DNA of 36,847 bases from Asterionella formosa. Lineage: Eukaryota. The position numbers and the translations under genes are program-made. Shown here piece after piece: positions 7,618 through 36,847 of the stretch. The notes beneath the pieces were generated by a model that saw only the letters and a program-made list of their open reading frames with translations, did no database searches and had not been told where the DNA came from. Location of the stretch: positions 1-36,847 of the forward strand of contig NKIB01015270.1 in assembly GCA_002256025.1 (NCBI GenBank), in the 5' to 3' direction. Positions within the stretch are counted from its first letter, which is position 1, and every line of letters begins with the position of its first letter.

Positions 7618-8126
7618 CACGAACCTATGGCCACAGGAAGGTCAGAGGAATGGTGCTACTTGATAGAATTACTACAAGGTCGTCTAGCAATCAACAGTTG
7701 AGAGTAGAGCTAATTCAACTGTAAGAATGCTCGCGTATTGGCTCTGTAGTAAAGTCGTTGAACTTATTTCTGTGTTGTGCAGTACTGCTTTGAAAAAACA
7801 TGGCGCCCAATGGGCTGTCGTGTAGTACCAGGTAGCACGGCGAATATATAACGGTATACTTAATACGTATCATTATGTAGCAAAGGGCGCGCCAAAAAAT
7901 TTCCACCGTCCTTTTCTCTTCGGCCAATCGGCTTCATGTATACTATATATCGTGGCACCTCCAAACATATCACACCCGGTGCCCGTACCAGGTACCGGTA
8001 CCGGTACTGGAAGTGGAGAGAGTAATACAGGAACCTGATGGTACCTGGTAAATTTATCTTTCGGATGCTTCGCTCACTTCTTCGAACAATCGCGTTCGGT
8101 TACCATCCACAAATAATACCATTGCT

Positions 8127-11100: not shown

Positions 11101-11198
11101 ACATTGACGAGGAGTTCGATGAATGGCGGCAAACCTTTGAATCTAAGGCTGACATGAAGTCGAATGAAGAGGAAGGAATAGGTAGGTTTGGCATATAG
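8127..11198 (+). CDS. Hypothetical 1023-aa protein with a coiled coil, Q/P/S-rich repeats, an interrupted PDZ-like domain and a CxC-x4-H-x7-C motif
   Basis: 3-kb uninterrupted ORF. PDZ-like segments are 'IEKPLDGVFGISL' and 'AKANGTLKVGDIIISIHG...SFDEACKLF'. The Cys/His cluster is 'GCRCGSKDHTHVNNPMC'. Confidence 0.75.
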   Translation: MPIANPYSKPSNPYTKVGPGQSKEIVITPLGNGNASARNVECSVPIVSIPSKTPAASTKLAKDFPSKASKKIPCFKEQLKIQIQRLKQKKKLEKERKEHAIVVERQKREQAEQSRLQLVKQQHQKRVKHHSNQTEKIPRETLIAVTTAKVPQPTIRPQHQVTPPQTCREHGNSKPTDSLVAPLCLSQQPSVHYVDQVTPSNSFREPSHGNATPMAPSLQQNNYTLQPSLIQQTSCQVTPSASYRETSQGNSVPIGSSTTPLLLVSSSFPPHHNVSQQCLIRKSLFHAADKDTVKLTLGHPHVIPPLWNCYQHPFYPNYQTHPTYPVNQHHPYYSYRPHPMLPQKPLGLLSNDLLKSPSPYSRTHTLLPIVIEKPLDGVFGISLRVDTTSVLVEPELTDRDMIINVLHDMVNNISTRNNQNITTRRRKRRRRMAFRAMCVAKANGTLKVGDIIISIHGSLTSGRSFDEACKLFGGGTATEGGMIQCELLVGRRKQVVMPVAPLVKAPTPVLPTKIPFVCSETTNQTLRGDFSANELIDLFNGVVKLLTDKTRILGYKALDVVEKAVLCLPLREFSDVKKKLAQMNRELELTLISEAKQHWNGAPWTDSQRATLRALPRPILGCRCGSKDHTHVNNPMCGLYSNLHPVPSFAPPRQPLETSLKDLSALETAYKDRFIKLKEEQERDQDEARFVAEMEHIQVSTVGKAIFVPSFTAMILSSIATVSDDFESQAAAAIKKRILHAKEQIRPPAAGVESDDDVLLTSLGKRGTAPTNDCESKKVNANEFPLLDVGFNILFLAKLLVHISKTWGHLYREPVHKDYAWRWELFHGSNSEHGTNPGGKNPRRPRSASLENVQFGFKEVQMSRLEEWAFGTREQRSDPKETESEMKQAAQDGLAIAYLVSPERSGLLDELLVLLRSRIIRKTRNGGAVFRRDWASQVDLLLLNDMYAHWSLDADPENKHCMHNKVRYNLASYWIRIDGAWALSEDMSEIIYIDEEFDEWRQTFESKADMKSNEEEGIGRFGI

Positions 11199-11592
11199 AA
11201 AACTAAATACTACACACAATACCTAGACTGCAGTTTGACATACCGGTACCGGTACTCTACCTGGTCCTGCTTTTTTCACTTGATCTGTAGTAAAAACCGT
11301 CTTTTAGCTCAACTCCCACAGATGCCCTGGTACAACTACCAGCTACTGGAGTACCAGAACCAGGTAGTAGTACCCCAACCGTTATTACTATCCAAACAGT
11401 GCGAAGGACAAAAATAATATTCCTTACCGAAATCAGCCACCAATTTTTACATCACCGTACGATTCATATCCGGTATGCTGTGAGTACACCATTACTGCCC
11501 GTGCGTCCAGCTACTGGTACATGATACCCTACCGTAATTTGCATTGTAGTACCAAAATAGCTATTTATTAACAAAACGTTTGACTGATCACC

Positions 11593-12325
11593 ATGGCATC
11601 GATCGATGGTTCTACACCACTCTCTGCTGAAGCCTCACGGCTCTTTCGTGTCTACAAGACCATGAGTTCAATGCTGGTGAGACGTGGATACATGGTTCCA
11701 AAGGATATGAGGGAATTAACACCCAAATCCTTTGTTGATAAGTTTGGAGAAACACCTTCCCGCGAGGCCATGACTATTCTAGTGGTACGTGGTTCCATGT
11801 GGGCAGAGCCTTGTTCAAACGACAGAGACATGCTAACCGAATTTTTCTCTGCCTGACATTTCAATTTATGTACGGTAGGAAAAAGCAGATGACGAAACAA
11901 ATCAACTCTTTTGTTTCTTCCCAGAGGACGAAAAGGTGGGAGTCAAACCCATCAAGGTGTATACCGACCGCATGAGAGCTGAAAATGTGGGAAATGCCAT
12001 CATGGTCCTTCGGGTTGATATCACGCCATTTGCGAAACAAGCGGTACAAGAAATGAGCGACTCCTTTAGGATTGAACACTTTAAGGAAGCTGAGCTTCTT
12101 GTCGACATTACTCAGCATCAGCTGGTACCGGAGCATCAAGTTTTGACTCCCAATGAAAAATCAGAATTATTGAAACGCTATCGATTGAAGGAGACGCAGT
12201 TGCCCAGAATTCAACCTAATGATCCAGTGGCTCGCTACTTTGGAATGAAAAGAGGGATGGTGGTCAAAATTATTCGTCCCAGTGAAACTGCTGGACGATA
12301 TGTGACCTATCGGGTTTGTATGTAA
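11593..12325 (+). CDS. RPB5: DNA-directed RNA polymerases I/II/III shared subunit RPB5 (RPABC1), 212 aa
   Basis: Exons 11593-11784 and 11879-12325, with intron GTACGT...GCTAAC...TAG (11785-11878). Hallmarks are 'RLFRVYKT', '[15 protein letters not shown]', '[16 protein letters not shown]' and '[15 protein letters not shown]'. Confidence 0.97.
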
Positions 12326-13323
12326 GGAATTAGAGTATCCATCTCCTTCCAATTGGGCAGAAAGGAGGAAAAATTTCAAATCATAGGGTAGATCAATGCA
12401 AACTGCTGGTACGATCAACAGGATATATTTACACGATCCACATGGAAAATGTCGCGTTTGTACGGGACGCGTTGTTCCATCTAATCCTCATTTTTAAGTT
12501 TTCCTGCATTGTGATATATTTACATACCGGTTTGTGGACACGCTAGGATGCAGCCTATTCTTCCCGATTTGACCCAGAAACCTGTAGCGCCGTAGATAGT
12601 ATCTGGCCATTGGATAAAACAATTGATGAAAACACTTCGCTCATTCACCTTCGTCGTCATTCATAACAAAGCAACACGGCTAAATACCCTCTACTGGTAA
12701 AATAGTACTCAGGGATTGTATAGATAAAGCACTTCACTATAATTTAGTTTCGATTTGTGAACAATAAATCATTTTTTGATCCCTGATAATAATGCGGTAC
12801 TATGAAAGCGATTAAGCAGTTGATCTGCTACAATTGTTCGACCAAATGATTCCCTCATGTTCTGTAGATATAGAATACAGATAGGTAAATAATAGACTTC
12901 TCCATGGAAGTCTACAGTCTAGACTCTAGACTGCTCTATGTAGACTCAAGACTATACTCCGGAATGTGGCGACACCTTTGCTGGTCCTCTCGCAGTTGAA
13001 GCTAGCGACCACACTCACCCTGCTAAATTTTCTGCTGCTCACACCGACCAAAAGGAACTGCACCTACCGGTACCCCACGAATCAGCTTCAACTCAGCGAA
13101 CAAAAATGCATGGTGATGCTGTGGACCATAATTAACCATATGTAGTATCTACCGTAGTAATAGAACAGTACCGGTAATTCAAATTAAAAACCGCGCGGTA
13201 AATACATACAAAACAAGACATGCATGTGCTGTGCATGATGGGTGAAAGCGCAATTCCTTACTTTTTGAAACTGTCACATATTGTTACAAATCGCCCACAT
13301 TTTCCATTTTCCGACATTTGACC

Positions 13324-13965
13324 ATGAACACGATCGACGTTGGTGGTGGTGCGATTAAATCCTATGTTCCACCTTTTCGACGTGACGGACACCAACCATT
13401 GCCAGTAAACAAGCGGTCAGCGGGTGGCTGGAATGCAGGAGGACCGTCAAACAATGGCGGTGGTGGTGGTGGTCGTGGCGATGGCGGTGGTGGAAGCCAT
13501 TACTCGATTGTAGATTTGGAAGCCCTTGTCAGGGATAGTATCATCCGTCATGATGATCGTCTCGATGTTATAAAGAATGAACAGGATCAAGCCCTAGCGA
13601 TTGTCTTGGAAAACCAAGCTCTTCTCCTAAAAAATCTTGCCCTTGTCTTGAAGAACCAAGAATTACTTTTGACGCCGGCCTTGCAAACCACTGTAGCCAG
13701 AGTACATGAAAATTCTCCAGAAAGCAAGTATACTTTTATGGCGTCTCATTAAGATGCTTCAAATATTTCAGCTAACCATTATTTTTATACCTTAGTCTCC
13801 AATGGAATCCCTGATTACGCAAAGGCACTCAAAAAGAAGCGAAAGGCCGACCTAGTAGAAATTTGTAATGAAAATTCCGTTGATTCTTCCGGAACCATAA
13901 AGGACATGATTTCTCGGCTCTTGAAGAAGCGTGCTCGTGTTGATGATGATGGTTATGTTGGTTGA
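13324..13965 (+). CDS. Small Gly-rich/coiled-coil protein with a C-terminal SAP-like domain
   Basis: Exons 13324-13723 and 13796-13965, joined by a predicted GC-AG intron (GCAAGT...GCTAAC...TTAG). Exon 2 encodes 'LKKKRKADLVEICNENSVDSSGTIKDMISRLL', which is SAP-like and absent from the ORF track. Confidence 0.6.
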
Positions 13966-14510
13966 CATCAGTTTAATTGAGAAGCATTTCTATTGGTAGT
14001 GCCAAGTAGCTAACCTTTGAAAACAGTAATATAATAGATATTTTCGGTAACCTATGTATGTTTACCTTATTTGTTTGGAACAGTTCTCTTATCCTGCTGA
14101 TACCGGCTATAACTTTCTAGCAAACAGTTTGTTACAAAAAATCAAGCAAGCTGACTTGCAAAAATAGATAGATAAGCTGAACTGGGACCAGTCTACCATC
14201 TCAGATTTATTCTAATCATATTCTTTGTTTGAGGACTTAGTATTAATAGTATATTGACAAATGGCTTAGTCATATCATGTCGGTAACTTAAATTGCTGGT
14301 TCAGATGTCCATGCAATTCCTATTTGAAAAAATTGTATGACCAAAACCAATGCAAGTGAACCAGGTACTTTTGCCGGAGTTTGGATTTTATTGCTGCCCC
14401 AATGTAGGAATTGTAATTACAATGGAAAAAGCAGTTTAAACACAAGATTCAGTAACTAGCATCTTTGAAAGTTCTGGAACACACTACACATGTAAATAGG
14501 ACCATTAAAC

Positions 14511-15833
14511 CTAACTCTGCTGACACTGAACTCCTTGTCCACCTTGCCCTTCTTCATCACTATCATATTCATTTGCAGAACTGACAGCCCCTCCTTTGCC
14601 GAAAAAAGCAAGGTCTGCTTCTTCCATATAATGATCTTCCACTTCCTCATTCTCATACTCTTCCTCAATATTGGGATCTGGCAATACTCTTTGTAGAGTC
14701 GCAATGTCTTCAGGCGACAATTTGTCGGGGAAAGCAATCTCGAAGGCAATGTACAAGTCGCCTCTGACAAAAGGGTTTCCAAGAGATGGCATGCCTTCAT
14801 CCTTGACTTTTTTGATAAAAGGCAAGAGTTTTCCATCTCTTCGGACTTCGGCGTGAATGATTTCTCCAGGATGTGTTTTGATACACAATTGACGACCGTC
14901 CAGGTGTGTGATATGCCACTATACCGAAAATGAACAAACGGGATTTGCATGAGTGAATGTGTTCACAACAGTAAAAGGAAAATGAACAAAATAGCGATCA
15001 TCCATTCAGAATCAACGTACCGTGAATCCACAAAGCGCTTGATTCAAGGACAATTCCTTTGTCACCAGCAAGTCCGCATGTTTGCGCTTGAACAACTCAT
15101 GGGGTTTCTCTTGGACGATAAAGTTGATATCCCCAGGTTCCATTTTGGGAATTTCATCTCCCATGTTTGCAAATGAAATCTTGTGGTTGTTGGTCATGCC
15201 CTTTTGAACCAGGACTTCCAATATCTTTCGTTCCGATTTGGTTTTGGCTTCATACCCTTGTCCAGAACACTTGTCACAAGTTCGTTGCACTTGCTGAATC
15301 ATACCAGGTCCAATCTGCCGAATTTGCATAACAGCTCCTTGACCACGACATGTGTTACAAGTTGCCACATCCCCGACAATAACCTTGCGATTGACTGCCA
15401 GCTTGACAGTCTTGCCCAAATACAAGTCTTCCAAGGACACCTTGAGCGGATGATTGACAGACGGTCCCTTGCGCGGACCACTCCGCTGAGAAGATCGACC
15501 TCCTCCAAAAAACATACTGAACAAATCTCCATGGCCATCTCCACCAGCACCTCGATCCACTCCTTCCAATCCGTACTGGTCGTACTTTTCACGCGTTTCT
15601 GGGTCGCTTAAAACTTCATAGGCAGCGTTAATTTCTTTGAATTTGTGCTCGTCTCCACCTTTGTCCGGATGGTGTTGACGCGACAGAGCACGATAGGCTT
15701 TCTTAATGTCCTTGCTACTGGCTGTTTTATCAACGCCCAACGTCTCGTACAACTTCGTCGTATCGACGGGCTCTGATTGTCTCATCGAGCCACCTGCACC
15801 GGGGAAGCCATCAAAAGGAATTCCTCCAAACAT
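14511..15833 (-). CDS. DNAJA: Type I Hsp40/DnaJ co-chaperone (DNAJA/YDJ1-like), 406 aa, with CaaX C-terminus
   Basis: Exons 15833-15021 and 14918-14511, with intron GTACGT...TAG (15020-14919). Contains a J domain with HPD, a G/F region, two CxxCxGxG repeats and 'THLDGRQL', and ends in CQQS. Confidence 0.95.
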
Positions 15834-16804
15834 GGCGAAGAGTTTCTGTTTCAAACAAGTGAGGGTACAAGTAAATAGGTATTCAACGATGAGTTAGCGC
15901 CCACTTCAAGCACAACCAGTTGAGTATTAGTCCTTGCAGGAGGATTTGATTATAATCGGCAGTCGTTTATTGTGCGGAGTTTTGTCGTCGGAACAATGAC
16001 TTGCTCTGCCTCGCATGTATGTAGGAGTACCAGTATCGTAGTGGCGATATGCATTTCGTTTTCCATCGAATTTCCAGACCATTCCTGATCACAAGTCACC
16101 ACAGCCGTCGGTATGATGCATACTCCAGTGTACATGTCTACATAGATCATTGCTGCATACGTACCACGTCGACACAAGACGTCGTATGATACTGCTGTAC
16201 AAACCGGTACCCGGTACCTGGTACTTCCTCATTTTCGAATACAGTATACAGTAGGTACGTGCTGTATACATTGCCATTGTTTTGTTTTATTTTATTTTAT
16301 ATTTTTACGCTCTACAGTAGTCTACCGGTATGCTTGGTGCTGGTCCAGCGATATGTAATACCGGTACCAGTACCTGGTACGGTACAAGGTACCGGCTGTT
16401 TTTGTGTAGGCAAAGCTTCTACTTACAGGTATCACCAGTCCTCGAATCTACTTCGACCCAATAACCGACTTGTTCGACTGCCTTTCCTGAATATATTTCC
16501 GTGCGTTGTGATGATAGTTTTTTGGCTTTTTTTGTTCTGCACCAACTAATCTTTAGGCTTGTAGTACATAAGTTGGTCTTTCGATTAGCTTCGGAGATTT
16601 CCTCCCTCTGGCTCTCCTTAGCTGCAGTACCAGGCGACGCCGTCTGCATATTTGGCAAATCTCCTTGTGGGATCATGTGTGAAGTGACACGTGCTTTCCA
16701 CCCTGCCATTGTCAATTGAGAAATGAATGAAAGGGTGTTGGTCTCTCGGTTTTCTGGGGGGCAAAGAATGTGGGTTTGGTGATCATTTTCTGACTCACAG
16801 ACTT

Positions 16805-18845
16805 GGTGATTGCTGAAGGCAATACACGCCCAAGGTGGTCTCTTGCCTGCGAGTATACATGTGTTCGAGGCTGGGTGGCGTGAGTACATTGACCGTACGA
16901 GTGGCGCTGGCCATCCCAGCCGAGTACACATGTATACGAGAAGGCAAGTAGCCGCCAAGAAGGGTATTGTTGAGGCAATTCCCGCTCTAGCTATTGTCAT
17001 GTCATTCGCTTACCTACTGCCCACAAAAAAGCAAAAATGTCAATTTTAGCTTACTATTGCCCATCATATAAAATATATTTCATATATTTCCTATCTTCAC
17101 CTCGAAAATTGCCAAAGGTCTGATATTGCCCATCATTAAAATATATTTTGGATATTTCATATGTTCGCATTTTGGCAAGACAACAGACGCCAATTGCTCC
17201 TCGGTTTTCTAGCCCTGGGATTGCCGAAATTGGCAAGGGGTCTACTTAAGGAAACCATTTTATATACTATTCAGACTTTAATAATTTATATCTAGAATTC
17301 ACCGCATTTTTGTTCATCTCCTGAAAAGTGGACTCCGGCAATTCACCTTTCACCATGCCAATCGTCGTCCATCATGACCGGGTTGAAGCGAAATCAGTTC
17401 CGCGATGACGCCAGTAGCGATTCTTTGCCTAACAGATGCGGTTGATTGTTGGATTGCTTGTCTTCTCGAGGCATTCATGTAGTCGCATCGTCCATTTTTC
17501 GTCGGACAAACAATGATATCGATACATCTGATGTTGGCGGCAAGTTTTTGCTCCGGTCATGTATGTAATGATGCTTAACGGATATTCTACCGGTACCGGC
17601 AGTCATCTAGTCTACATACGTATGTGGTACTAAAAACAACCATGGATGGTTTAAGCTATACTTAAACACTTAGCTACTTTGAACATGTTATAATATTATC
17701 TCTGTAGACTCGGTATTATTTTTACAAGACCTGAATGTTAAATTATATTCTTCACATACTATTCATTGATTTTACATACCGTATGGCCGATTTCGTCCTC
17801 ACAGATATACTTCTCACTCTATCTTGCCTGCCTTTGCTCTATTCGGGCTTGCAATAGGCAACGTTTGTCTTTCTTTGATCCCATAGTCTGCTGCTTGTTA
17901 TGCTAGTTGAAGCGGATCGGTGAGTACAACAGTGAAACACTGAATGTGGATTATAGATCATTTTTATCGACTGTCTGATTTGATTGCTTCCGTGGTTTCT
18001 TTTGATCGCTTCCATCGTTGTTTGTCGTTCCGCACTGTCGTTTTGTTTCGATTGTACATATCTACATAAGAACCAATGCATTTATCAATGACTACTCATT
18101 GAAGATTTGGTATTGTGCCGTTGTTGATTTGTATAGTCGTTGACAATGATGTCAATATTGCCGCCAAGCAATGCTTTTCCTGTACTAACGCGCTTTGCTA
18201 CATTTCTACTACAAGTTCATATCAGAGGCTACGTATATTCAGCTAGAGGGAGTCGATAGTGCTGAAGCAGCCTGGTGATCATACTCAATCAGAATGGATT
18301 GGAATGGAATGATGATCAGGGTTGTTTGGTGGGAGGAACGAGGACTGTGGGCAGAGGGAATGCAACTTGGTGTGTCAGGCTCCTACAGCGATGTGCATGG
18401 TTACAACAAGCAGATCGTCTACACTACATAACGACGCAGGTCAAGATTGGGTTCAGCTTTTTCCCTTCTTATTTCGGTCATTGATTGTGTGGTGATGGAA
18501 ATTCAATTGCTTTCGTAAGTACTACAATGTCACAATGCATACATCTCCATTGAAACTCTTATTTTTTACTTTATTTCCTTTGATGCTACTTATTACATCG
18601 CATTTCATACTTTGGTTGCTCCAAACATCATGTTCAATTTTCATTGATGTTGCATGTTACAATCATTCTTGTGTGTTTTATGCTTGTTGTACCATCTCCA
18701 TGCATATTACCGATATTCTGGTTGTCATGCTAAAATCGGCAATTTTATTGCCGAAAAATTCGATGTGCCCCATATTGCCCTTAAATAAAAATTACTTAAA
18801 AGGACCCGAATGGCAAGATGATAGCTGGAGCGGGAATTGCTGTTG
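16805..18845. repeat. Interspersed repeat, copy 1 (probable non-autonomous mobile element or large tandem unit), with ~600 bp of extra sequence at ~17170-17770
   Basis: Colinear, same-orientation matches to ~30880-32520. Examples are 'caatacacgcccaaggtggtctcttgcctgcgagtatacatg' vs 'caatacacatctgaggtggtctcatgcctgcaagtatacatg', and the shared blocks 'ttgcccatcatataaaatata', 'gttgacaatgatgtcaatat' and 'cgatgtgccc(c)atattgccctt'. Confidence 0.8.
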
Positions 18846-19261
18846 ATCCCTCCTCCCAAAATCATTTCTGTTGTTTCCATTCAGGATGAAAAATGTTGTC
18901 TTTGCTGATTAATTCAATTACATGACATATACTAAATTTATAAAAATAGTGTTGCTTAATTCTGTTTCTGCAGCATTACACACAGATACACATTTTGGAG
19001 CAACAACAAAAAGTGTTGCTGGAAGCAACATAGTACCTGGATATGGGTGATACGAAAAATTGGGCCAATCAACAGAATTCACCATTTTGTATCTATGTTG
19101 AGACTGGCCTAAGCAGCAGGCAGAAGTCAGTTGCTAAGGCCAGTGACAAGATTTCTTGTTATTACCACTGTCAAGAGTACTCTTTCCAAATTCCCCATTC
19201 ACTATACCAAAAGTCTGCACCAGTTTACAAATGTGCAGGTAGTGCTGAAACAAAAACTCTT

Positions 19262-22200
19262 CTATTTGCTGGTTAATGGTCGGACACCAGTCCAACTAGG
19301 GGGGCAAATTCCGTTGCGTTTTTCCATGTAGGCCACTAGAACCTTGCATGTACCATCGCCCAACTCGTTTCTTATTCGTACAACCTCATCATTGCTATGA
19401 TGTCGGTCAAAAATCCGCCCATCGATGTCGTTAGGGTTATAGTCGATGTATCCTTCTTCAAGCACTGTTGTAATCATTATTTCGTCTGCTTCCTGCAGAG
19501 CTATGATCGCTTCCTTCCAGTCGCCATGAAGGTACGCTTTGCTACCTTCCCTGAACTTTCTCTCAAAGTCTTCCGTGACATGCTGTCTCATGGCTCGGAG
19601 ATCTTGATCGCTTTCCCACACCAATGGAGTGTACGCTTCTGCGTCAAGATCGGATTGCTCCGCAGAACGCTCAAACAAAAAGAAATCAACGCCTATGTTC
19701 CTAGCATCATACGTAAAGATCCGTTGAGCGACGCTGGATCCCTTTACAAAGACTGTGTCTAAATGGCGCAATTTATTCCGGGCCGGAGGAGAAAGGAGTT
19801 CCTCGACTGCTTGGCTGAGAAGGATGGTGACTCCATATTGTTTGGCTGCACTCATCATGCGGGATGCCATATTCACATGAGGGGAGAGGTACGTAGCATC
19901 GATCTTGTATTCACTGCCTACCGCACCTTCGACGGCCCAGCCAGCATCCATACCAATAACAATGCTGACCGTATACGCACCGACACCAGCTCCAAGGCGG
20001 AAGTCCTTCTTCCAGTTTTGAAGATTTCGATCACGATGGATACCAGCAAAGGATTTCAGCAAACCCAAAAGGGCGCGGTCAGAAAATGACTGGATACCCG
20101 GGAGCGACGCAAGTTGTAAAGTATCATCTCCACCGCCTCTAGAGCCTTTAATAACATTCACACCTCTACTTCCGTGATTGATTCCACGACTCCGGCGTTT
20201 CATGGTGTTCTTCTTTGCATTTCTCTTCTCCTTCGACCCAGAAAACAATACTTCCGTAGCTCGAGCCTTCTTTTCGTGTACTTCAGTGAAGTCACCAATG
20301 CGAAAGACCATCAAGAAAGCAGCACCAAGATTCTTGTTGCATTGGCCGCTATCGCCTAGAGCCCAACGAAAGACTTCGTCATGCACAACTTTAGCAACAT
20401 CGTTGATCAAAATCATAACATCCCGGTCGAGAGCACGCAATTGCTCGCTGAAGCCATTGATTGCAACAAAGCCAAAGAGTGCATACACACGCTTTCCTGG
20501 AACAGTTGGATTGAAAACAACAGTCTTTCCATCTTGAGTCCTAGCGAGGTTGGAGGAAATGATCCCGGCGCCTGCAACACCCCAACACTTTCGAAGAAGA
20601 TCAGCAATTTTAGAAATGGCATTGATAAGCTGTTCCGTTTCGTAGTTACCGAGTTGCGCTTTATCACCATCCTTATCAGGATCACTTTCACTCCCTTCGC
20701 CGCCAACTTCGCCGTCTCTCTTTTGCCTCTTATTTGACCTTGCAGTTGACGAGAGTGGATTTTGAGCATAACGAACTACGATCTTGAGCATTCTCTGGAG
20801 CGGATGCAAAACGAGACGACCAGCATCGCCGCGAAGGACCGTCAAACCAGTCAAACTGAGCAAAAGGATGCAAAATAATAGAATGAATGATGAAATGTTC
20901 GTAAACATAACTGCCTGGTTCTGGTTAACAAGAACCTTCACACTGAATGTAGCATTGGTCACTTCTTGCGAGCCATTGAACCATGTTAACGTGGTGGACT
21001 TTGTGTATTCCGAGATAGCTCCGACTGGTATGTCAAGTAGATCAGCGAAGAAATTCGGGGTTGCATTCGAAGGTGCTGCATTCCAAATTGCGCAGGCACC
21101 CACAACGACATCTGTATATTTGTCACATGACGATATCACACCGTCGTCGCTTTGGAAGTTACAGCGAACCGGAAGTACCTGCGCCCAAAGAATATAGGCA
21201 CCCTCGGAATAGTAGGTACCCTCCGTTGCAGGTGACAAAACCACCGCTGCCGCAGCTAGCCATGACTCGAAAGAATCCTGAAGGAATGCGCAACTGGTAT
21301 CGCTATTGTTTGTCACTAATTCACTAGTCGCTTGAAGAAAGCCAACAAATTCTGGTGCACTATTGTTGACACCGCTAATTGTCGAAATCATTGGCAAAAC
21401 TACGACAATAATTAACCTGTCGGGTCATTAGAAATGGCGTAAAATGAAAAATCAATGCAATCACTTTCAATACTTACAGAAGCAAAAGGGCGCGATGCGA
21501 GTTCACAACCATTAGAGCAGTACCGATAGTTGCCGCCTTTTTCAGACCCCTGTCATTCTCATAACTTGATTCGGACTTTCTCTCCGAGTTATCCTCTTCT
21601 CCTTGATGTATGTCCCCGACCTGAGCCTTTCGTTTCCTCGAGAAGTGTCGAGAAGTATAATATGGCTCATTCGGGTCATCAGAGCGGAAAAATTTTGGAA
21701 AATTTCCATTTTGTACCCTGTCATCGCGAAAGGTGTTGTTGATCCACATCTGCTTCCAATGACGAACAAGTCCGAAAATTCGCAATGTCCGCAACCCAAG
21801 AGCAAAGCGACCGACTGCGGAGTCCCACCTAGTAGGTCCAAGGACAGCGGACATCGAAACATCAATGCCAGAAAAATGAGTACGTGCGCCACAGGTCCTT
21901 CCATGTAAACACACAAAATCGGGAATATATAGAGCCAAAGCCACGATCTCAAACATAACGTGAAATGCACTGATATAACGGGCGGTAGATGGAGCGTATG
22001 CCTTGTCGGAAGCAATTAGTTCAAAATAATTTGAAGGCCGGATCACCAACTCCATCAAAAGCTCAAGGGCAAGCACCGTCCAGATACATCTGAGGAGAAT
22101 AACCAGTGTGAGTTGTTGACAAGCCCTGAGAATTATTCACAAAATAATCAACTTACGCCCCAAGCAAAGCAACCTCATCAAAGGAAGTGGAAGGAAAGAA

Positions 22201-23699
22201 TGCCAAGGTCGCAGTCTCAAGGAACAAGTAAATGAAACTACACATTACCAACAAGTTAATTCCAGTGCAACGTAAACTGCATGAAAAGGGTGAATCTCCA
22301 AATAGAAGAGAGGATGCAAGTTCCTTCAACTCGCTTCGGAACTTTCGGTAAAAAGGGACTAACTTATTCTTGCGGAAACGGATTGGCCAAGAAATGAAAG
22401 CAACCAACCGCTCAAAGCTCATGCTTTCCTTGTTCGTCTTTTTAACGTCAGCCATTGACCAACTTGTTTCGCGCGCGGCCCGCAATGCTGATTCGATTCC
22501 TTCTGGTGATTTGCATTGTTCCATCCAGGCTACGGCAAAATGTCAGGGAAAGGTTAGGCGCCATTTGTCCAATTTAAACAATCTGTAACACCAATAAATA
22601 ACCCACCTGTATCTGCCCTCTGCAAAGTACCAGTATCTGCTCTTGCAACTGTATAATATTTTATATCTTCGTCAAAATGCACTTTCTGCACTGTTGCCAA
22701 CACATATACAAAAGGGCCTTGCTGTTCCTCAAAGTTTCCGCCTTGACCTCGCGGATAACCAAATTTATTCACTGGTTGCACAGTAAAAGCTTCTTGGGGA
22801 TCTACAGAATTGGTATGGTTCATAATATTCAAAAACACCAGAACTTTTTCGCCTACAGCAAATTGCAAATTTGATAGGTTTTTGCTACCTGCACCGACAC
22901 CAGCAGCAACGACAGCCGCTGCCGCTGCAACGTTTTCCCATTCAGAGTTAGATGTTTGTCCCAAGCTCGAAAGTGCCGCGTCAAAAGAATCAAAATTCTG
23001 GGAAGAACTCTTCGAATGCCGATTTGAAATGCTATGAGAGGTTCTTCGACTGGCTTTTCGGCCCATCCCTATTTTCATAATCCCCGAACTGGCAGCTGAA
23101 AAATGTTCATTGTCATCCATCGAGAAATTTCCAGTTACGACTGGCTTGATATTGACGGATTTCCGCCGCACTGAGTTTTGTCGACTCAATCTTGAGTGCC
23201 CAGATCCTTCGTCGTCTGATTCTGACGCAGAAACAGTACCTCGTCGCTTGGCCATCTGAAGTGAGGGGTCTGAAGCGAAGGAGCCAGATCCGGCGCTGTA
23301 CAAAGAATTGAAACTACGTCTGGAAGCTGAGGATCGCCTCCTAGTTGGACCCGAAAAGGAGCTTCTCTTGGTAGCTCCTGCCGTAAGACTGGGGGTTGAT
23401 TCTTCACTCAAACTGTCAAAGTGACTTGAAATGTTGTAGTCCTGCGAGTTGTGGGACATGTTCTCGCTGATTTCCTCACGCGAATTCGCCCACTGAAACC
23501 CTCTGGAAGCTTTCACTTGTTCGTATTCTTCGTCTCCGAAGCTAGCGGCAGAAACGTCGTCATCGTCTCGGCAAAAGAGGACCGGAGGGTAATATGCATG
23601 GTCCATTGAACGGTCTTCCATGTCCTCCTCTTCTTCCTCTGTTATGTGTTCCATCCTGTCGAGAAGAGCATCACCTCCTTCGTCGAATGGAGATGACAT
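19262..23699 (-). CDS. Voltage-sensor/ion-channel-like 6TM domain fused to a class III adenylyl cyclase-like domain (alveolate AC-alpha type), 1410 aa; probable pseudo-cyclase
   Basis: Exons 23699-22607, 22529-22157, 22089-21478 and 21416-19262. All three introns are GT-AG and frame-preserving, giving 4233 nt. Motifs are an S4-like 'GRFALGLRTLRIFGLVRHWK', 'GWAVEGAVGSEYKIDATYLSPHVNMASRM', a TPR-like tail and the terminal 'WTGVRPLTSK'. Confidence 0.9.
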
Positions 23700-23989
23700 G
23701 CTATAAATGATGGTCTCTGGGTGTTACGGTATGTGTTCCGGTAATAATACCTTAGTATGGACAACCTGCAAGAACGCGGCTGCAGTGGTAGTCGCAATGC
23801 ATGTCGGCGACACATATATTATGGAGTGTGCCTGGAGCAATAATATGAATGGTAGTACTGGTAAGGCATACCTACTCTGTTGAAATTTGTGGCGCTTCAT
23901 CCTAGCGCGCTCCAGTACTGCCCTGAATGACCGGTCAAGATCGTTCTCGCGCCGCTCGTTTGCAAATTATTCTGCTATCATACAAGATA

Positions 23990-24900
23990 CCCTGGTACCA
24001 GGTACTGTCTGCCGAAATTTCCATTTAGACATTCCTCAGACTACATCTAGTCTTCGGACACCTGTCGACATCAGCAGCCTAACAGACAAATTCTGACAAT
24101 ACCACTCCTCCTCTGGTCGAAACCAAGGAAGCCAAACCTACATACCCGTATACCGTACTGGTACCTGGTACCTGGTTCCGGTACCATGTACCTATTATTC
24201 ACAAGCACATTACCGGTACGGTAGCCTACCCTTTTTTTACCACCAGGGTACCGCCTGGTAAAATACCGGGTTACCATCCTTACTTAAAACAAGGGGAAAG
24301 TCTTATGTAGTACCAGTATACCGGATCGTATACCGGTATTCTACGACCCCATGCTCTGCAGATGCATATCGTATTTTATCAGTCTCTGTTTATAATACCA
24401 GGTATACCGGTAGTACATTTGGTACAAGGTACCGGTACCAGTGCCGGTGTCAGGCAGTATCTTCATGCCGACAGGGAAGGTCCGGTAAAACACGTTGTTA
24501 ACTTATTTTTTAAGAAAAGATTTAGCAAAATATCGCGATTACAGGACCTTCCACAGAGGTGTCCGGAGTTTACGAAATATGTACCTTGTTACCGGTAGTA
24601 CCGGACATTCCAGGGCAGTAGGTCTACTGGCACGCGTTACATGGGAAGAAGCGCCATTCACTAATTTCGACATACCGGTATACACCGGTAGCTCATAACG
24701 GTGCGTACATAAGTAGGAATGTGATAGCTTGGTGTGCCTTAGTCATCAACAACTGTACGAGGTTTTACCTGGCACCGGTACCAGTGCCTGGTCCCTTGCA
24801 TAGGTAAACCAGGTAGTACCTGGTACCAGGTACCAGGTATCCAACCATTCCTGCTCTCAATCACTAAAACATGAAACAACAACATCAGTACGGTACATTT
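23990..24900. repeat. Densest cluster of TA-flanked micro-motifs (TACCGGTA/TACCAGGTA/TACCTGGTA) in the divergent promoter region
   Basis: Many overlapping motifs, e.g. 'gtagtacctggtaccaggtaccaggta'. Similar clusters lie at ~3715-4075, ~7820-8050, ~11240-11550, ~16170-16420, ~27700-27905 and ~36410-36680. Confidence 0.85.
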
Positions 24901-25098
24901 ACATAGTGGGTAAAGCAAGACGAAAGTCTGCCATCACCATTCAGCAAGAATCACCCCGTCAGCATGTCAGCATCATCAGACAAGAACGTAAGGGAAGAAG
25001 CGCAGAGCCAAGAAAAGACTCATGGCGATAACGGTCTCAATGGTGGGGTCAATAGCCAAGTGCCCGTTCCGCCTACTGAGAAATCCACCGCACGAAAG
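24625..25098 (+). repeat. Duplicated promoter + 5' coding segment, copy A (paralogous to ~27750-28178)
   Basis: 'gtgggtaaagcaagac(g/c)aaagtctgccatca...catcagacaagaacgtaa...ccaagtgcccgttccgcctactgag' is present in both copies. Confidence 0.9.
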
Positions 25099-26559
25099 AA
25101 AAGAAAACGCGCCAATGCCCCTTCCAAACTACAACCAGGCGACCAAGGCTATTTGACACCAACACAACTTCGGAATGCTCGTAAACGGCGTGCCAACAAA
25201 AAGACTACGACCATCACTACTAATAGTGACCCATCTGGAAAGTACTTAGGTAATCCGTTGGCAACTCCCATTTGTCAAACTGCCAAGGAATACTTCCGGG
25301 CCATCAACTCTAGTGGTACTTTTGACATTCATATCGGGCCGACCACAGAATGGAGAACTGTAGCCAAACTTGCCGTTCGAGGCAATCCACTTTCCATTGG
25401 GCTCTTTGCGCCAAAATCACATGAACTTGTTGCCGTTCCGGACTGCACTGCACATCATCAGGGCATCAATTCAACTGTCGCTCATCTTGAACAATGTTGT
25501 CATCGAGCAGGGGTCACTGCTTTTGATGAGACAACAGGCAAAGGAAATATTCGATTCGCTGCTATGAATGTGGAACGTGCGACTGGGAAAGTTCAACTCA
25601 CGATTGTTTGGAACAGTGAGCCGTATAACGTTGACAATGATTTCAGCAACAATGCTGATGCGCATGATGATGGGAAGAATCAATTAGAACGACTTGTACA
25701 AATGCTATGTCCAAAAACATCCACCTCCACTGCTACACCAAAACAACGACGAAGGGGGACCAAGAAGAAGCCATTATTGGAACAAACAGATGTGATTCAT
25801 GGTCAAGAAAACAAGGTGGAACTGCATTCACTTTGGATTCATTTCAACTCATCGTGGAAGCATTCCAACGCTATCTTCGCGATTGATGCTGGACCCAACA
25901 GTTGGAAACAAATATTTGGACCGCCTGCCATTGTAGAGCACCTGACCTTGGTGGGGCAACCCAGACCTGTTCCACTGCATTTTCCCCCAAATGTATTTCG
26001 ACAAGCAAATCTTGACGCATTTACCAAAATTGTTGCCAAAATTAGAACAAAAATATCAGAGTTCACTAATAACAACACCAACAAGATGACGCAAGAAACA
26101 TTCACATGTGTTGAACTTTATGGTGGAGTCGGTACCATTGGATTGAATGTGGCAGATCTGGTGACCACCTTGACTTCTTCAGACGAGAATCCATTCAATA
26201 AGGATTGTTTTGAGAAATCAGCAACTGAGGCAGGATTAATGTCCAGAGTTGGCTATGAATCCAAGAATGCAACAGATATGGTACTTGGAAAAAGAAATGG
26301 AGCTTTTCAACAGGCGAACATCATTCTGGTAGATCCACCTCGAAAGGGATTAGAGGAACCAGTATTGAACTCACTATGTTCATCGTCAATAAATGCGAAA
26401 TTGCTGGTATATGTAAGTTGTGGATTTGAAGCATTCAAGAGAGATTGTGGAGCCCTATTGGACTCTGGCAAATGGAGTTTAGACCAAGCAGAAGGTCATT
26501 TGCTCTTTCCAGGAAGTGATGCTATTGAAACCTTGGCCTTTTTTGTTGCTAAAAAATAG
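24964..26559 (+). CDS. TrmA/RlmD-family RNA (uracil-5)-methyltransferase, 531 aa
   Basis: Motifs 'FRQAN', SAM-binding 'ELYGGVGTIGL', 'VDPPRKG', catalytic Cys 'YVSC' and catalytic Glu 'FPGSDAIETLA'. Confidence 0.92.
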   Translation: MSASSDKNVREEAQSQEKTHGDNGLNGGVNSQVPVPPTEKSTARKKRKRANAPSKLQPGDQGYLTPTQLRNARKRRANKKTTTITTNSDPSGKYLGNPLATPICQTAKEYFRAINSSGTFDIHIGPTTEWRTVAKLAVRGNPLSIGLFAPKSHELVAVPDCTAHHQGINSTVAHLEQCCHRAGVTAFDETTGKGNIRFAAMNVERATGKVQLTIVWNSEPYNVDNDFSNNADAHDDGKNQLERLVQMLCPKTSTSTATPKQRRRGTKKKPLLEQTDVIHGQENKVELHSLWIHFNSSWKHSNAIFAIDAGPNSWKQIFGPPAIVEHLTLVGQPRPVPLHFPPNVFRQANLDAFTKIVAKIRTKISEFTNNNTNKMTQETFTCVELYGGVGTIGLNVADLVTTLTSSDENPFNKDCFEKSATEAGLMSRVGYESKNATDMVLGKRNGAFQQANIILVDPPRKGLEEPVLNSLCSSSINAKLLVYVSCGFEAFKRDCGALLDSGKWSLDQAEGHLLFPGSDAIETLAFFVAKK

Positions 26560-27749
26560 CTAAATTTGAATTGCAAGAGATGTCGCTCATGGTTTGTTCA
26601 TATACTTGTGGGTAAAAAATGTTATTGTAAATAGATCATGTCAACAAGAAGTGCTTTGTTTTACACAGCAATTGTCAACAATGTACATTTGCCACATTTG
26701 CAATGGTTGCACATCCAACCAAGTCAAATGGTGAATTGTTCACATAAATTTTGGTTGAAATTTTCTTCTCCCTTCTCATGGAGCAATATTTAATACTGCA
26801 CACGTGCTTTCCAGGAATGATGATGGCATTGTCATGAATGTGGAGAATTGACTCTATTAGATACCAACATTATTACAACTCATATTGCCTGAAGCTACAA
26901 ACATGTATAATAAAAATGGTGTCATGATGTGCTTGTATGCTGTCGATTTTTACAGGAGGTGTCTGAGAGCATTCAGATTGACGGAGATCAATAAAATCAA
27001 TATACTGGAGGACAGTTTCATGGATATTGTGGTCAAGCTTTTTGCAAGAGCAAACAGAGGGAAAATGATCGACAATGGGACTGATGCTTCAATGCCAATG
27101 CCATCAATCTACTTACTCCCAAGAGGTGCTTGATTGGGAAAAGGCAGCAATGAAGTTCAAGCGCCAGTGGGTCGCAAGGATGCCTATCAAAAGAGGAAAT
27201 TGGATTGTCTCTAGTTTTACGACATTTTCACAAAGACCTCTTGCTCAGGCACATTATGGATGCTGTTCTAAACCGCCTGCGGCTTTTGATAATCCCCTAT
27301 GGAACCAGTCATCACTGTAGCTAGAGAGTTTGCTGCTTTCGATCCTGCAATGTTCACCTTTGACACGAGCATGTTCAAAGATCTCACCAACTTCCACAAA
27401 CACCACCATCATAATGTACTGCTTGAAGCAAATACCTCATTGCATCTGGTATGGCAACATATTACACAGATGCAGCTTTCAACACCACCTACCTTGAATT
27501 GGTGAAACTTCTGGTAATGTCCTCCTTGCATTTATGGCCTTTGGATAGTGCGATGGCAGACTACATGACCATAGCCGAACCCATGATCAGGACCAATGAA
27601 ACCAGAGTCTCCGAGGCAAGAGGGATCAATCAGACTAATCTGGCAACCAGGTAGCATGCTCGTTAGTACATGTTTTTTTGCTAGATGACGAGGTCCACAT
27701 TCCTACCGGTACTACCGGTACCGTTATGCCGGTGTACATAGAAGCTACA

Positions 27750-28178
27750 GTACTGGAGCGCGCTAGAAAGAAGCGCCATGCACGCAATCATATGTTACCG
27801 GTGCGTACATGTTGGAGAGTGATGGCTTGTGCCTTCTTCATCAAGTGTACGAGGAACCAGGGTACCCTAGTACCATGCAAACCTGGTACTGGTACCAGGT
27901 ACCCCTGTGACATCCCTGCTCTCTATCTCTCACATGAAGCCAGATCAGTTCGTTTACATGGTGGGTAAAGCAAGACCAAAGTCTGCCATCATCATTCAGC
28001 AAAAATCACCCTGTCAGCAGCATGTCGGCAGCATCAGACAAGAACGTAACGGAAGAAGCGCAGAGCCAGCTAGTAAAGATTGAAGAAAAGACTCATGGCG
28101 ACGACGATCTCGTTGGTAATGTCGATGGCCAAGTGCCCGTTCCGCCTACTGAGGAATCCACCGCCATTCCACGAAAGC
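27750..28178 (+). repeat. Duplicated promoter + 5' coding segment, copy B (paralogous to ~24625-25098)
   Basis: Same blocks as copy A. Encodes [16 protein letters not shown]...[12 protein letters not shown] versus MSASSDKNVREEAQSQ...[12 protein letters not shown] in copy A. Confidence 0.9.
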
Positions 28179-30259: not shown

Positions 30260-30879
30260 GTGCCCATTGTGCCATGATGTATTTTCTTGTTTCCGTTTGT
30301 TTCTACTTGTGTTTTCTCATGGTACTTGCTGACAATCTTGGCCACGAGAAGGCCTTCCTCTCTTCTCTAACATTGAAACCTGTGATAAGCATGCGCTTTC
30401 TCGCCCTCTCGCTGTCTTTTGTGCATGCTTATGGATGGCTCAATCCAAGTGCTCTGAGCGAGTATTCTTGGAATGCATCATTCGGGCTGAATGTATCATC
30501 ACCTCCTTCATTTGTAACATCAAAATCATGGGCCCTTCATGATGCAGGACCAAACCCGACTTCCAGTAGACTACCTGATACCCAGTACTGCTTTTTGGAC
30601 AATGTTATAGACCTTCCTTCCACAATTTGATATTACCTGTACTACATACCATGTGGTTAATGTAGCATGTAAGTATTTTCCATAAAAGATGATTGAGTCT
30701 CTAAAAAATAACAGCTACTCTATCAGGTACTATTTTATTGTAATGGCAACTATGCTACATACATGTACCATTGATCACTCTGCACCTGTCAAAAACTTCA
30801 CCAACTTTGATGACAATTTTACTCCTATCCTTGTTTGACGGTCCCTGCTCAAACCTAAAATTAGACTGCTGAAAAAGCC

Positions 30880-32520
30880 ACTGTGCCCCTATATACTGCC
30901 CCTAAATAAAAATTACTTAAATGCCCATAGTTCTCAATGAAAAGCAAAATGAGGTTGGGGATTGCTTAATACAATACACATCTGAGGTGGTCTCATGCCT
31001 GCAAGTATACATGAGCTTGAGGCAGGGTGACCCAAGAAGGTTAACCATGATACAATGGCATCCCTGGCATTGCAAGGAGAAGGTCACCCTACAAGTGCCA
31101 TCAAGCAGAAATGTACATATTTATGTGAGAGGGCATGTAATTTCGAGAAGGTTATTGTTGAGACAATTAACAAACTAACTAGTATCGTCGTGCCGTTCAC
31201 TTAGTACCTACTGCCCACTCATTGAGCGGAAATGTCATTTCAGTTTGCATCATTCTTACTTATCATATAAAATATACTCTAAACTATTGTTGTGCCATTC
31301 ACTTACCAGCTGCCAACTCATTGAGTGTAAATGTCATTTTTAGTTTGCTATCATCATTGCCCATCATATAAAATATATTCTGAAAATTTCCCAATGGGAT
31401 CAGTATTACCCATAATTATAATATATTTTGTGTGTTTCATTTGTTAGCCTGATTTTATCCTCACAATTATAAATCTCACTTGTTCATGTCTGCCATTGCT
31501 CAATCTTGGCTTCCATCAGGGACCTTTTGACTTTTAATTGGTCCTATCATTTTCTGCTTGTTATGATAGGTATGGCGGATCAGTGAGTATAGCACTGAAG
31601 TAAAGAATGTGGTATGCATAGCTATGCTATTTGTCCAATTTGCAATTTGATTGCTTATATTTGTTGCTGTTTTGATTACTTCCATCATTTTTTTCGTTCC
31701 ATAGTAGTACTGTTGCTTTGGTTTGTTTGTATGCATCTATTTATATAAGGGTCGATTTAGACTATTTATTAGCTAGTGCCTACTCTTTGAATATTTATTG
31801 TTGCTGAACATATTTGCTGATTTGTAGAGTTGTTGACAATGATGTCAATATCACCACCCAAGCAATGCTATTCTTACACTAACTTTGGTTTGCTATCTTT
31901 TCACTCAGAGTTTGTAACACAAATACATTTCAACATTTATCAATAATTGCTGATTCAATCGAGTGAGTCGATAGATGAGAAGCCTGGCAGTCATTTGTAG
32001 AATGAAATGATCAGGGTTGTTTGATTTGAACTCCTGTGAACTGCAGGACTTCTGCTAGCTAGTATGTGAAATATTCTGCCATCAGGCTACAGCTCACCTA
32101 CTCAATAGTGCAATATTAATCTCAATTGGTTAGAGGTTATTTCTTTGTTTTCTATGTTATTTCATCCTCCAATTGTGTGATGGAAAGTCAATGCTGGTGC
32201 CTGTCTAAGTTCTACAATGTCCTCAGATGCTGGTATTATTTGCCTCATTTCTAGCCCAAAACAGTTTTTCTTTCTCATGTAATGCTTCTCATTATATTGC
32301 ATATCATTCTCTGGTTGCTCCAAAAATCATTTTCAATTTTTATTGAGATTTAATGTTACAATCAGTCTCATGTTGTTGATGCTTGTTTTTCTGTCATCAT
32401 TGCGGACTCATTTATACACAATAGTATTTTGCTTTCTGCCATAATTCCGGTAATCATATGAACGTTGGTTATTCTTGGCTGTCGATGTGCCCATATTGCC
32501 CTTTTATAAATTTACTTACA
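30880..32520. repeat. Interspersed repeat, copy 2; CpG-depleted, with an internal ~100-bp tandem duplication (~31185-31385)
   Basis: Colinear with ~16805-18845. The motif 'gtgccc..atat(t/a)..gccc.t..ataaa..ttactta' occurs at both ends (~30883-30921 and ~32487-32520). Confidence 0.8.
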
Positions 32521-33389: not shown

Positions 33390-33515
33390 TTCAGGACACT
33401 GCCTTGCAAATCCTATATCAGGGGCGTTGGATTAAATAGAGTAGCCACCTACACTTCGTCCTTCTAATATCCAAAACTTGTTAAACTAAGAGTTGTTCCA
33501 TGGCTCCCGTATACG

Positions 33516-34970: not shown

Positions 34971-35658
34971 ATGGGCTGACCATGGCTGGGATGGAGAACC
35001 ATAGCCAAACTTGCCGTTTTCGGTGATCCACTTTCCATTGGACACTTTGTGTGCCGAAATCTCACAAACTCATTGGTGTTCCGGACTGTACTGCTGCATG
35101 ACATCATCAGAGCAATTTAATTACAATGTCGCTCATCTCAAACAATGTTGTCATCAAGCAGGGTTCCCTGCCTTTCATGAGACAACAGGCAAAGGAAACA
35201 GGTGTTGAATCTTATGCTGGAAGTTGTACCATTGGATTGAATGTGGCTGGCAGATCTGGTGACCACCTTGACTTTCTTTAGACGAGAATCCATTCAATAA
35301 GGATTGTTTTGAGAAATCAGCAACTGAGGCAGGATTAATGTCCAGAGTTGGCTATGAATCCAAGAATGCAACAGATATGGTACTTGGAAATAGTAATAGA
35401 GCTTTTCAACAGGCGAACATCATTCTGGTAGATCCACCTCGAAAGGGATTAGAGGAACCAGAATTGAACTCACTATGTTCATCGTCAATAAACGCGAAAT
35501 TGCTGGTATATGTAAGTTGTGGATTTGAAGCATTCAAGAGAGATTGTGGAGCCCTATTGGACTCTGGCAAATTGAGTTTAAACCAAGCAGAAGGTCATTT
35601 GCTCTTTCCAGGAAGTGATGCTATTGAAACCTTGGCCTTTTTTGTTGCTAAAAAATAA
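34971..35658 (+). pseudogene. Partial, internally deleted pseudogene copy of the 24964-26559 RNA methyltransferase
   Basis: ~34971-35197 matches ~25333-25547 with indels, then jumps to the equivalent of ~26104. 35281-35658 matches 26182-26559 with 8 substitutions by my count. The N-terminus is missing and the SAM motif is frameshifted. Confidence 0.9.
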
Positions 35659-36080
35659 CTAAATTTGAATTGTAAGAGATGTCGCTCATGGTTTGTTCAT
35701 ATACTTGTGGGTAAAAAATGTTATTGTAAATAGATCATGTCAACAAGAAGTGCTTTGTTTTATACAGCAATTGTCAACAATGTACATTTGCCACATTTGC
35801 AATGGTTGCTTGCATATCCAACCAAGTCAAATGGTGAATTGTTCACATAAATTTTGGTTGAAATTTTCTCCTCCCTTCTCATGGAGCAATATTTAATACT
35901 GCACACATGCTTTCCAGGAATGATGATGGCATTGTCATGAATTTTGAGAATTGACTCAATTAGATACCAACATTATTACAACTCATATTGCCTGAAGCTA
36001 CAAACATGTATAAGAAAAATGGTGTCAGGATGTGCTTGTAAGCTGTTGATTTTTACATGAGTTGCCCGAGAGCATCTGAA
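35659..36080 (+). repeat. Duplicated 3' flank of the methyltransferase (copy of ~26560-26975)
   Basis: Near-identical non-coding sequence 'ctaaatttgaattg...gctacaaacatgtataa...gagagcat'. Confidence 0.92.
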
Positions 36081-36359: not shown

Positions 36360-36530
36360 AAACTTTCATATGATCTCAAGAAATATTGACTCCACCCAAG
36401 GTGTAATCATGTACCGGTAAATAATCAGACCTAATAGTCCGGTACTAGAGAACCTGGTACAGGTAAACTTTCATATGATCTCAAGAAATATTGACTTCAC
36501 TCAAGGTGTAATCATGTACACAATCAGACC
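36360..36530. repeat. Direct repeat of ~66-72 bp (36360-36431 and 36465-36530)
   Basis: 'aaactttcatatgatctcaagaaatattgact(c/t)cac(c/t)caaggtgtaatcatgta...aatcagacc' occurs twice. Copy 1 has an extra CCGGTA. Confidence 0.92.
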
Positions 36531-36847
36531 AGTTGTACCGGTACCGGTACCAGGGTGGTACATGCAAAAAATTCAACCCCCAGTGCAACCTTTTAAGACC
36601 GTAGTGAAAGCTAGTGTACTAGCAGTCAACTAGCACTGTGTACAAAGGTAAACTACAAAAAACCCTGGTACCGGTATCAAAAGGCATTACCAAATTCATG
36701 AAACAACGTTTCGACTTCAATATCGCTCAACAGTGCAGCATAACCAGTTTGAGGCGCTTGCAAGTTGCAAACAAGTGCCACAACTGGGAGTTGATATTCT
36801 TTGGAATTCAAGCCTAATGAACAACCACATCGAATCGCAAAATGTGC

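Follow-up and report, generated by a model that had tools for sequence, protein, structure and literature searches.

Probable excision scars of pogo-type transposons are concentrated upstream of genes in the diatom Asterionella formosa

Introduction

Excision of Tc1/mariner transposons produces 3′ overhangs and leaves footprints of 2–4 terminal bases between two TAs, as described in the accessible part of PMC6943129. The Sleeping Beauty footprints TACAGTA and TACTGTA show this arrangement, a TA duplication framing a few terminal bases, and the Tc1 footprint TACATGTA, as cited in the available text of PMC3520976, likewise consists of TA-framed terminal bases. Footprints of Tc1 are described as rare.

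Promoters are nucleosome-poor, and the use of Tn5 in ATAC-seq relies on transposon insertion as a readout of open chromatin. Hermes, Mutator and the P-element all show a bias towards insertion in promoters.

Words of the same form are known as promoter motifs in the oomycetes, another stramenopile lineage. In the accessible portions of PMC3597505, PMC10031896 and PMC3520976, motif M94 is TACCGGTA (motif-9, GTACCGGTA) and motif M93, or motif-1, is its CA-ended sister TACATGTA. These over-represented words have been read as transcription-factor sites; a footprint origin of TACATGTA was raised and then dismissed, according to the available text of PMC3520976.

Here we analyse the same word in the diatom Asterionella formosa. 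The window is one whole contig of 36,847 nucleotides (NKIB01015270.1; C15270 in our numbering), and genome-wide counts refer to the 68.4-Mb assembly of 15,436 contigs (GCA_002256025.1) to which it belongs. Those relatives of its encoded PhyH that bear a species name come from diatoms, and the sequencing runs in which the contig occurs are for the most part of freshwater samples. Sites of TACCGGTA and of a second word, TACCWGGTA (W, A or T), are referred to as scars.

Results

Counting of k-mers showed that TACCGGTA and TACCWGGTA were by far the most over-represented TA-framed words of the window, with 26 and 19 sites, respectively (45 in total). The interval 23990–24900 contained 12 exact sites of the two words, whereas 2,000 dinucleotide-shuffled versions of it had 0.125 on average and never more than 2. 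Across the genome there were 57,976 occurrences of TACC(N0-1)GGTA, and the reversed control had 3,137. TACCWGGTA accounted for about 40% of sites, and exact triple CCWGG chains numbered 750, with 0 in the control.

Ten of the 12 window genes had 1–12 sites in the 1 kb 5′ of the start codon. The initial annotation had placed clusters upstream of particular genes, and exact counts within 1 kb recovered each of them: 8 sites for the gene starting at 4533, 2 for 6418, 5 for 8127, 2 for 11593, 2 for 13324, 4 for 15833(−), 9 for 23699(−), 12 for 24964 and 3 for 28022, with a single site for the cluster before 32722, which it had called weak. Its description of motif-poor regions also held, there being 0 sites within 1 kb upstream of either EamA or PhyH, 0 inside any of the 12 genes, 0 in the convergent 3′ gaps 13970–14510 and 33390–33515, and one (17588) in the AT-rich repeats. 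The divergent promoter between 23699(−) and 24964(+) had been named as the densest; it did contain the most sites, in 23990–24900, but 3400–4050 was equally dense (9 sites in 650 bp). These nine exact sites span 3430–4031, 500–1100 bp 5′ of the ORF at 4533. Five exact sites lie at 7826–8050, 5′ of the ORF at 8127, and four at 16215–16379, 5′ of the DnaJ gene (15833, − strand). A further cluster of 4 sites, absent from the earlier list, was found at 36412–36669 near the contig end. To it belongs a tandem duplication at 36360–36544, with a period of 105 bp and a different scar content in each of its two units. The cluster may represent the promoter of a gene located past the contig end.

The AT-rich repeat, ~2 kb in length, occurs at 16808–18799 and about 30846–32500. 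Three DNA runs cover it at a contig depth of ~1,000-fold, and 34-bp inverted repeats lie at 16975 and 18807; a further copy lies within a pogo-like element at locus L097.

The divergent promoter separates a multi-exon gene on the − strand (19262–23699), whose last exon has an adenylate/guanylate cyclase domain match (PF00211, E = 7.6e-6), from a + strand gene (24964–26559) of 531 aa with only a sub-threshold Pfam match. When contigs of four sequencing runs were aligned to 7950–27949, they showed gaps across the promoter. A poly(A) RNA contig of the left gene extends to 23811 and one over the right gene spans 24877–26632; both ends fall outside the cluster, which hints weakly at a position of the sites 5′ of the transcripts.

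Within the promoter, a TACCWGGTA scar at 23996–24004 lies inside a solo LTR, young copies of which have no motif at that site. A second, at 24162–24170, stands amid a run of degenerate neighbours. Exact TACCGGTA scars occupy 24211–24218, 24331–24338 and 24430–24437, and at 24396–24412 a TACCWGGTA is followed immediately by TACCGGTA. Another TACCGGTA scar, at 24590–24597, lies in a second LTR remnant and has a similar chain at the homologous 27704–27720 in the 28022 promoter, while that at 24673–24680 falls in a ~22-base stretch missing from this paralogous promoter. Three CCWGG units (T, A, A) with TA in common occur at 24817–24839, where the paralogous promoter has one exact unit; its own cluster (27704–27901) contains 3 exact sites. 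Differing arrangements in these duplicated promoters (24964 and 28022) had been taken as a sign of fast turnover. Since the chains are partly common to both and partly different, turnover has been partial. A partial copy of the 24964 gene, upstream of PhyH and without the promoter, was also seen at 34991–36075 (95% identical over 878 bp and 80% over a further 208 bp).

The solo LTR is an old copy (23878–24098, TG...CA ends), placed on the − strand from the primer-binding-site-like and polypurine flanks of other copies; its matching target duplication is no longer present. The second remnant (24513–24672, + strand, confident for ~24585–24672) is of the same family, more decayed and inverted relative to the first. 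It also bears insertions, and a piece of it recurs at 27748–27778 in the paralogous promoter. Bins containing this family (23878–24098) had very high contig depth in one poly(A) RNA run, a hint of family transcription.

Copies of this 221-bp repeat were exploited to see how the words arise. There are ~400 candidate copies in the genome, and the repeat was identified as an LTR because of its TG...CA ends, the 6-bp target duplications of several copies and its primer-site-like and polypurine flanks. Copies L016, L017, L028 and L029, beside that of the window, show a family with 6-base target duplications. Exact motifs numbered 0 in 26 young copies and 18 in 35 older copies, a count that is inflated, as most of the old copies were picked by their likeness to the motif-bearing copy of the window. 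Clean TA to TA-CCGG-TA insertions, producing TACCGGTA, were found in old copies L198, L211, L213 and L194. TACCWGGTA also arose as an insertion at TA with the TA duplicated, as CCAGG+TA in L002 and as stacked units in L007 and L200, and CAG+TA insertions were present in L199 and L200. In pairwise alignments, clean TA framing was lacking for 42 of the 60 short insertions seen in old copies. Motif-bearing copies showed a weak link to motif-dense flanks (10/17 versus 4/15, p = 0.09), and LTR flanks leaned towards 5′ gene ends (12 versus 5 of 37). A further word, TAGCTA, was enriched in the first 234-kb sample (86 versus 29 expected) with little 5′ bias, and was seen as GC+TA insertions in L209 and L211; the AT-rich repeat was rejected as its source, its inverted ends not being TA-flanked.

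Fifteen old piggyBac-like copies of similar divergence contained 1 motif in 32.5 kb, and none of their 114 insertions was of scar type, intact or decayed; the 5′-leaning LTR, by contrast, had gathered many. This family (L156–L175) is ~2.55 kb long and has 4-base NTAN duplications (ATAT, CTAC, TTAT), not TTAA; 3- and 4-base insertions are frequent in its copies (62/114). As a source of scars it was discarded, its CGG...CCG ends and NTAN duplications fitting neither class.

A likely resident source with suitable ends was found among the pogo elements. DDE_1 matches in the genome numbered at least 93, and inspection of 50 of these loci gave five families with identifiable ends, of which A, B, D and E read TA|CCGT and C reads TA|CAGT. 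In family A, 37 of 42 ends read TA|CCGT, and 21–24 bp perfect inverted repeats with TA were found in L056, L061 and L100. Its transposase matched PF03184 (DDE_1) at E = 1e-21 with a weak N-terminal HTH match, and in the one transposase checked the second Asp was separated from the third by 35 residues (DD35D). Recent activity is evident from resident copies at 97–100% identity; in family A, some copies reach 99–100%. Family A shares with the pogo family (IS630/Tc1/mariner) a DDE_1 domain with an HTH match, short TIRs and the TA duplication, and its Asp spacing of 35 is that of pogo groups 33–40 in the accessible part of the survey PMC7325037. The word ‘diatom’ is absent from the main text of that survey. 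A further repeat end following TA was recognised in at least 6 independent flanks (L036, L043, L069, L120, L142), possibly that of a small non-autonomous element.

The target context of TACCGGTA also agrees with that of the pogo element: a G just outside the TA was found at 13 of 38 element ends, a small sample, and at 71 of 218 TACCGGTA half-sites. Excision of CCG-ended pogo elements would leave each flank with a 3-base 3′ overhang, CCG. Joined by pairing of their self-complementary CG, these ends could yield TA-CCGG-TA, and with full overlap TA-CCG-TA; excision of the CAG-ended family would give TA-CAG-TA. The 5′ enrichment of TACCGTA and the CAG insertions in LTR copies fit this scheme. Overhangs of 2 bases are disfavoured, since the CAG-ended family C would then leave TACATGTA, which was not enriched in A. 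formosa (6 sites versus 5.7 expected); 3-base overhangs are favoured accordingly. The motifs had been called footprint-like in the initial annotation. For TACCGGTA, the insertions at TA in old LTR copies, together with the resident TA|CCGT ends, bear this out, and we judge it very probable that this word is a transposon excision footprint.

Because most 5′ gaps in the window double as the 3′ gap of the preceding gene, the window alone is a weak test of 5′ versus 3′ location. The comparison was made in 399 kb from nine other contigs, a non-random sample of contigs that were long and had been found in repeat searches. An ORF counted as a gene block if it reached 250 aa or had a Pfam match, and gene ends were taken from the ORFs. 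With five transposon ORFs taken out and 27 of the 92 blocks set aside as unconfirmed, 65 gene blocks remained, all outside the window.

In the 500 bp preceding the start codon, site density was 3.66/kb (112 sites over 30.6 kb). It was 0.46/kb in the 500 bp following the stop (12 sites over 25.8 kb), 0.43/kb beyond 2.5 kb from genes and 0.11/kb in coding DNA. Upstream density thus exceeded that after stops or far from genes about 8-fold. The signal is an upstream excess and not a deficit in 3′ UTRs. A site was present at 47 of 63 5′ ends and 6 of 54 3′ ends (Fisher's test, p = 1e-12). Density peaked 300–400 bp upstream of the start codon and reached background level beyond 1 kb. Among gaps of up to 2.5 kb, densities were 3.1/kb for divergent, 2.4/kb for tandem and 0.5/kb for convergent arrangements, with a site in 6 of 7 divergent and 1 of 12 convergent gaps. 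The bias was unchanged after per-TA normalisation and was seen in all 8 contigs with gene blocks; none of 5,000 strand-flip permutations matched it. Of 35 genes that could be paired, 23 were richer upstream and 2 downstream, with 10 ties. Equal length-normalised densities at the two ends had been named as the result that would count against promoter association; the densities are unequal, and the bias of scars towards 5′ gene ends is all but certain.

The resident elements were distributed differently. In 1.5-kb flanks of 35 pogo ends, assessed with a codon-based ORF call, 4 of 35 outer flanks lay near 5′ ends, compared with 15% of random non-coding TA and 39% of scars; a cruder earlier test gave 8:8. 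Scars were present in 24 of 56 pogo flanks against a null of 25%, a modest enrichment to about twice background, and LTR flanks had no fewer (19/48). As scars are 5′-biased and resident pogo copies are not, promoters keep scars rather than elements. This complicates the reading of scars as a record of accessibility.

A rival explanation of the 5′ bias is co-option, in which words made by excision are kept upstream by selection, a factor or chromatin protein being the candidate binder. A sharp peak 200–500 bp upstream of starts, the chains common to both paralogous promoters and the lack of 5′ bias among resident elements would all fit, and oomycete data point the same way: TACCGGTA is the ‘high-confidence’ promoter motif M94 of Phytophthora infestans in the accessible portion of PMC3597505, and PsMyb37 has its sister TACATGTA as a binding site, according to the available text of PMC11134190. 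The sequences themselves, however, showed no sign of selection on the words. One-mismatch variants were in excess along the entire motif, as in neutral decay, and the number and place of sites differ between the paralogous promoters. The decayed form TACCAGTA was 5′-enriched too, as was a different word, TACCGTA (0.55 versus 0.12 per kb). No site was present at 16 of the 63 gene starts, nor upstream of EamA and PhyH. A metagenome search for orthologous promoters gave two distant loci only, neither with a motif; the locus of a distant homologue in another organism (L223) had 0 sites. Thus, of the properties of a binding site, positional bias was found, while conservation between paralogous promoters and intolerance of core mismatches were not. 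The earlier proposal of co-opted cis-elements is not supported by these data, and we consider selective retention unlikely.

Differential survival is another route to the same pattern: scars would form everywhere but survive only in promoters, CpG methylation eroding them elsewhere and younger repeats replacing the DNA. At the TACCGGTA CpG, 43 C>T variants were found against 4.9 expected, and in old LTR copies 12% of CpGs had undergone transitions compared with 4% of other C/G, a 3-fold difference. CpG density was 32.9/kb upstream of genes versus 23.5–26.4/kb, and the ratio of decayed to intact words was 47:52 far from genes and 44:98 upstream (p = 0.011). Such decay hints at CG methylation, although direct repair could also have produced the decayed form TACCAGTA. 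Little decay was seen at the inner C of CCWGG (3 versus 0.6 expected). Of the methylation targets suggested in the initial annotation, CCGG is thus supported indirectly, and neither CCWGG nor GTAC has support. In diatoms, CG methylation falls mainly on repeats.

The size of the effect argues against survival alone. Intact and decayed words together numbered 142 in 54.9 kb upstream, compared with 99 in 192 kb and 27 in 41.6 kb, and are thus still 4–5 times denser upstream; CpG decay contributes but is too small. In addition, TACCWGGTA has the same bias without any CpG, 3′ flanks are scar-poor though presumably as old as promoters, and the old piggyBac-like copies lack even decayed scar-type insertions. 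A survival-only account is already weakened by these observations, and to us it seems decidedly unlikely.

TACCWGGTA forms a separate class, stacking on earlier scars through its G-TA-C context. G...C flanks were found at 92 of 146 TACCWGGTA sites and 22 of 203 TACCGGTA sites, and this context is unlike the target sites of family A. With so strong a target context, the class tends to insert next to earlier scars and to form chains. Orientation was mixed in 28 of the 43 triple chains listed, with a long array counted once, and adjacent W units agreed in 30 of 46 cases and were mixed in 16. One homogeneous array of about ten CCTGG units (contig C1127, 1634–1707) was likely expanded by slippage.

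Neither the 50 loci inspected, of at least 93 with DDE_1, nor a de novo junction scan covering 879 kb, in which some loci overlap, yielded an element ending in CCA or CCT. Profile searches of the genome with DDE_3 and Transposase_1 gave no matches, the latter profile matching in no control genome either. Two other duplication schemes were considered. A 4-base GTAC duplication around CAG/CTG is disfavoured because L007 and L200 have CTAC at their left side but GTAC at their right, and a CWG duplication was rejected because the L002 insertion parses otherwise and chains are mixed. Our best guess for the maker of TACCWGGTA is a lost or unassembled element, the alternative being context-dependent repair.

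That TACCWGGTA, its chains and perhaps part of TACCGGTA came from slippage or palindrome-centre repair and not from excision would suit the missing source element, the G...C flanks, the 750 triple chains and the agreement of many neighbouring units, but slippage does not give mixed chains and so accounts for part only, the CCAGG+TA insertion in L002 had no neighbouring unit to copy, and TACCGGTA is not depleted in G...C flanks (22 versus ~22 expected from half-site frequency) as conversion to CCWGG predicts, all of which makes this account very improbable.

Discussion

The explanation that we favour, and hold to be reasonably probable as a whole, is that mostly neutral scars pile up in open promoters without the resident elements. 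The scars would be leftovers of TA-targeting cut-and-paste transposons, heaped 100–1000 bp 5′ of start codons; old LTR copies show that they arise from a plain TA by insertion of 6 or 7 bases. The transposase may reach nucleosome-poor promoter DNA best, for insertion and excision alike. Whole 2.5-kb elements in promoters would be excised or selected out and those in silent DNA would stay, while a scar of 6–7 bases could be tolerated and afterwards decay roughly neutrally. Scars would then act as a cumulative record of open chromatin. Taken by itself, the proposition that accessibility is the main cause of the 5′ bias has, on our analysis, a little better than an even chance of being right. The ~55,000 scars, set against at least 93 transposase matches, demand very heavy past transposon traffic.

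As with Tn5 in ATAC-seq, Hermes, Mutator and the P-element, the proposed transposase traffic would be concentrated 5′ of genes. Unlike those systems, the record here is natural and cumulative and consists of excision scars, and the resident elements show no 5′ bias. Relative to Tc1/mariner footprints, the CAG-ended family C parallels the Sleeping Beauty-like TA-CAG-TA insertions in LTR copies, whereas the main scars are of 4 bases (CCGG), with a CCG-ended pogo, or of 5 bases (CCWGG), with no source element found in the searches above. They also differ from the rare Tc1 footprints in being chained.

Excision footprints and pogo elements were already known; the number of scars, their stacking and their promoter bias are new as far as we found in print. 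A literature search that mostly did not extend to subscription journals returned no paper describing these words as footprints in diatom promoters. New here are the quantified 5′/3′ test, the four families ending in CCGT and the finding that scars and resident elements differ in their position relative to genes.

The comparison with oomycetes is less direct. The same word is a promoter word in both lineages, and functional readings prevail there, while in the diatom a footprint origin is directly supported and functional support was not found; TACATGTA, an oomycete promoter word, is unenriched in A. formosa. A wider proposal is that hit-and-run pogo traffic wrote a fossil map of open chromatin, and that the same process made the oomycete words TACCGGTA and TACATGTA, at least one of which is now Myb-bound. 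We regard this as rather unlikely. If it were true, the promoter grammar of stramenopiles would consist in part of excision scars, later adopted as binding sites. Since TACCGGTA has been published as a Phytophthora promoter motif, in the accessible text of PMC3597505, the question of scar versus factor site is testable there too.

For motif discovery the findings carry a warning: a promoter word that is over-represented, palindromic and positionally biased need not bind a factor. Excision footprints are usually rare curiosities, and here there are ~55,000, present at three in four of the gene starts examined. Should the scars indeed reflect accessibility, the bare sequence of A. formosa would allow its promoters and open chromatin to be mapped, and the scars would count past transposition far above what the surviving elements suggest.
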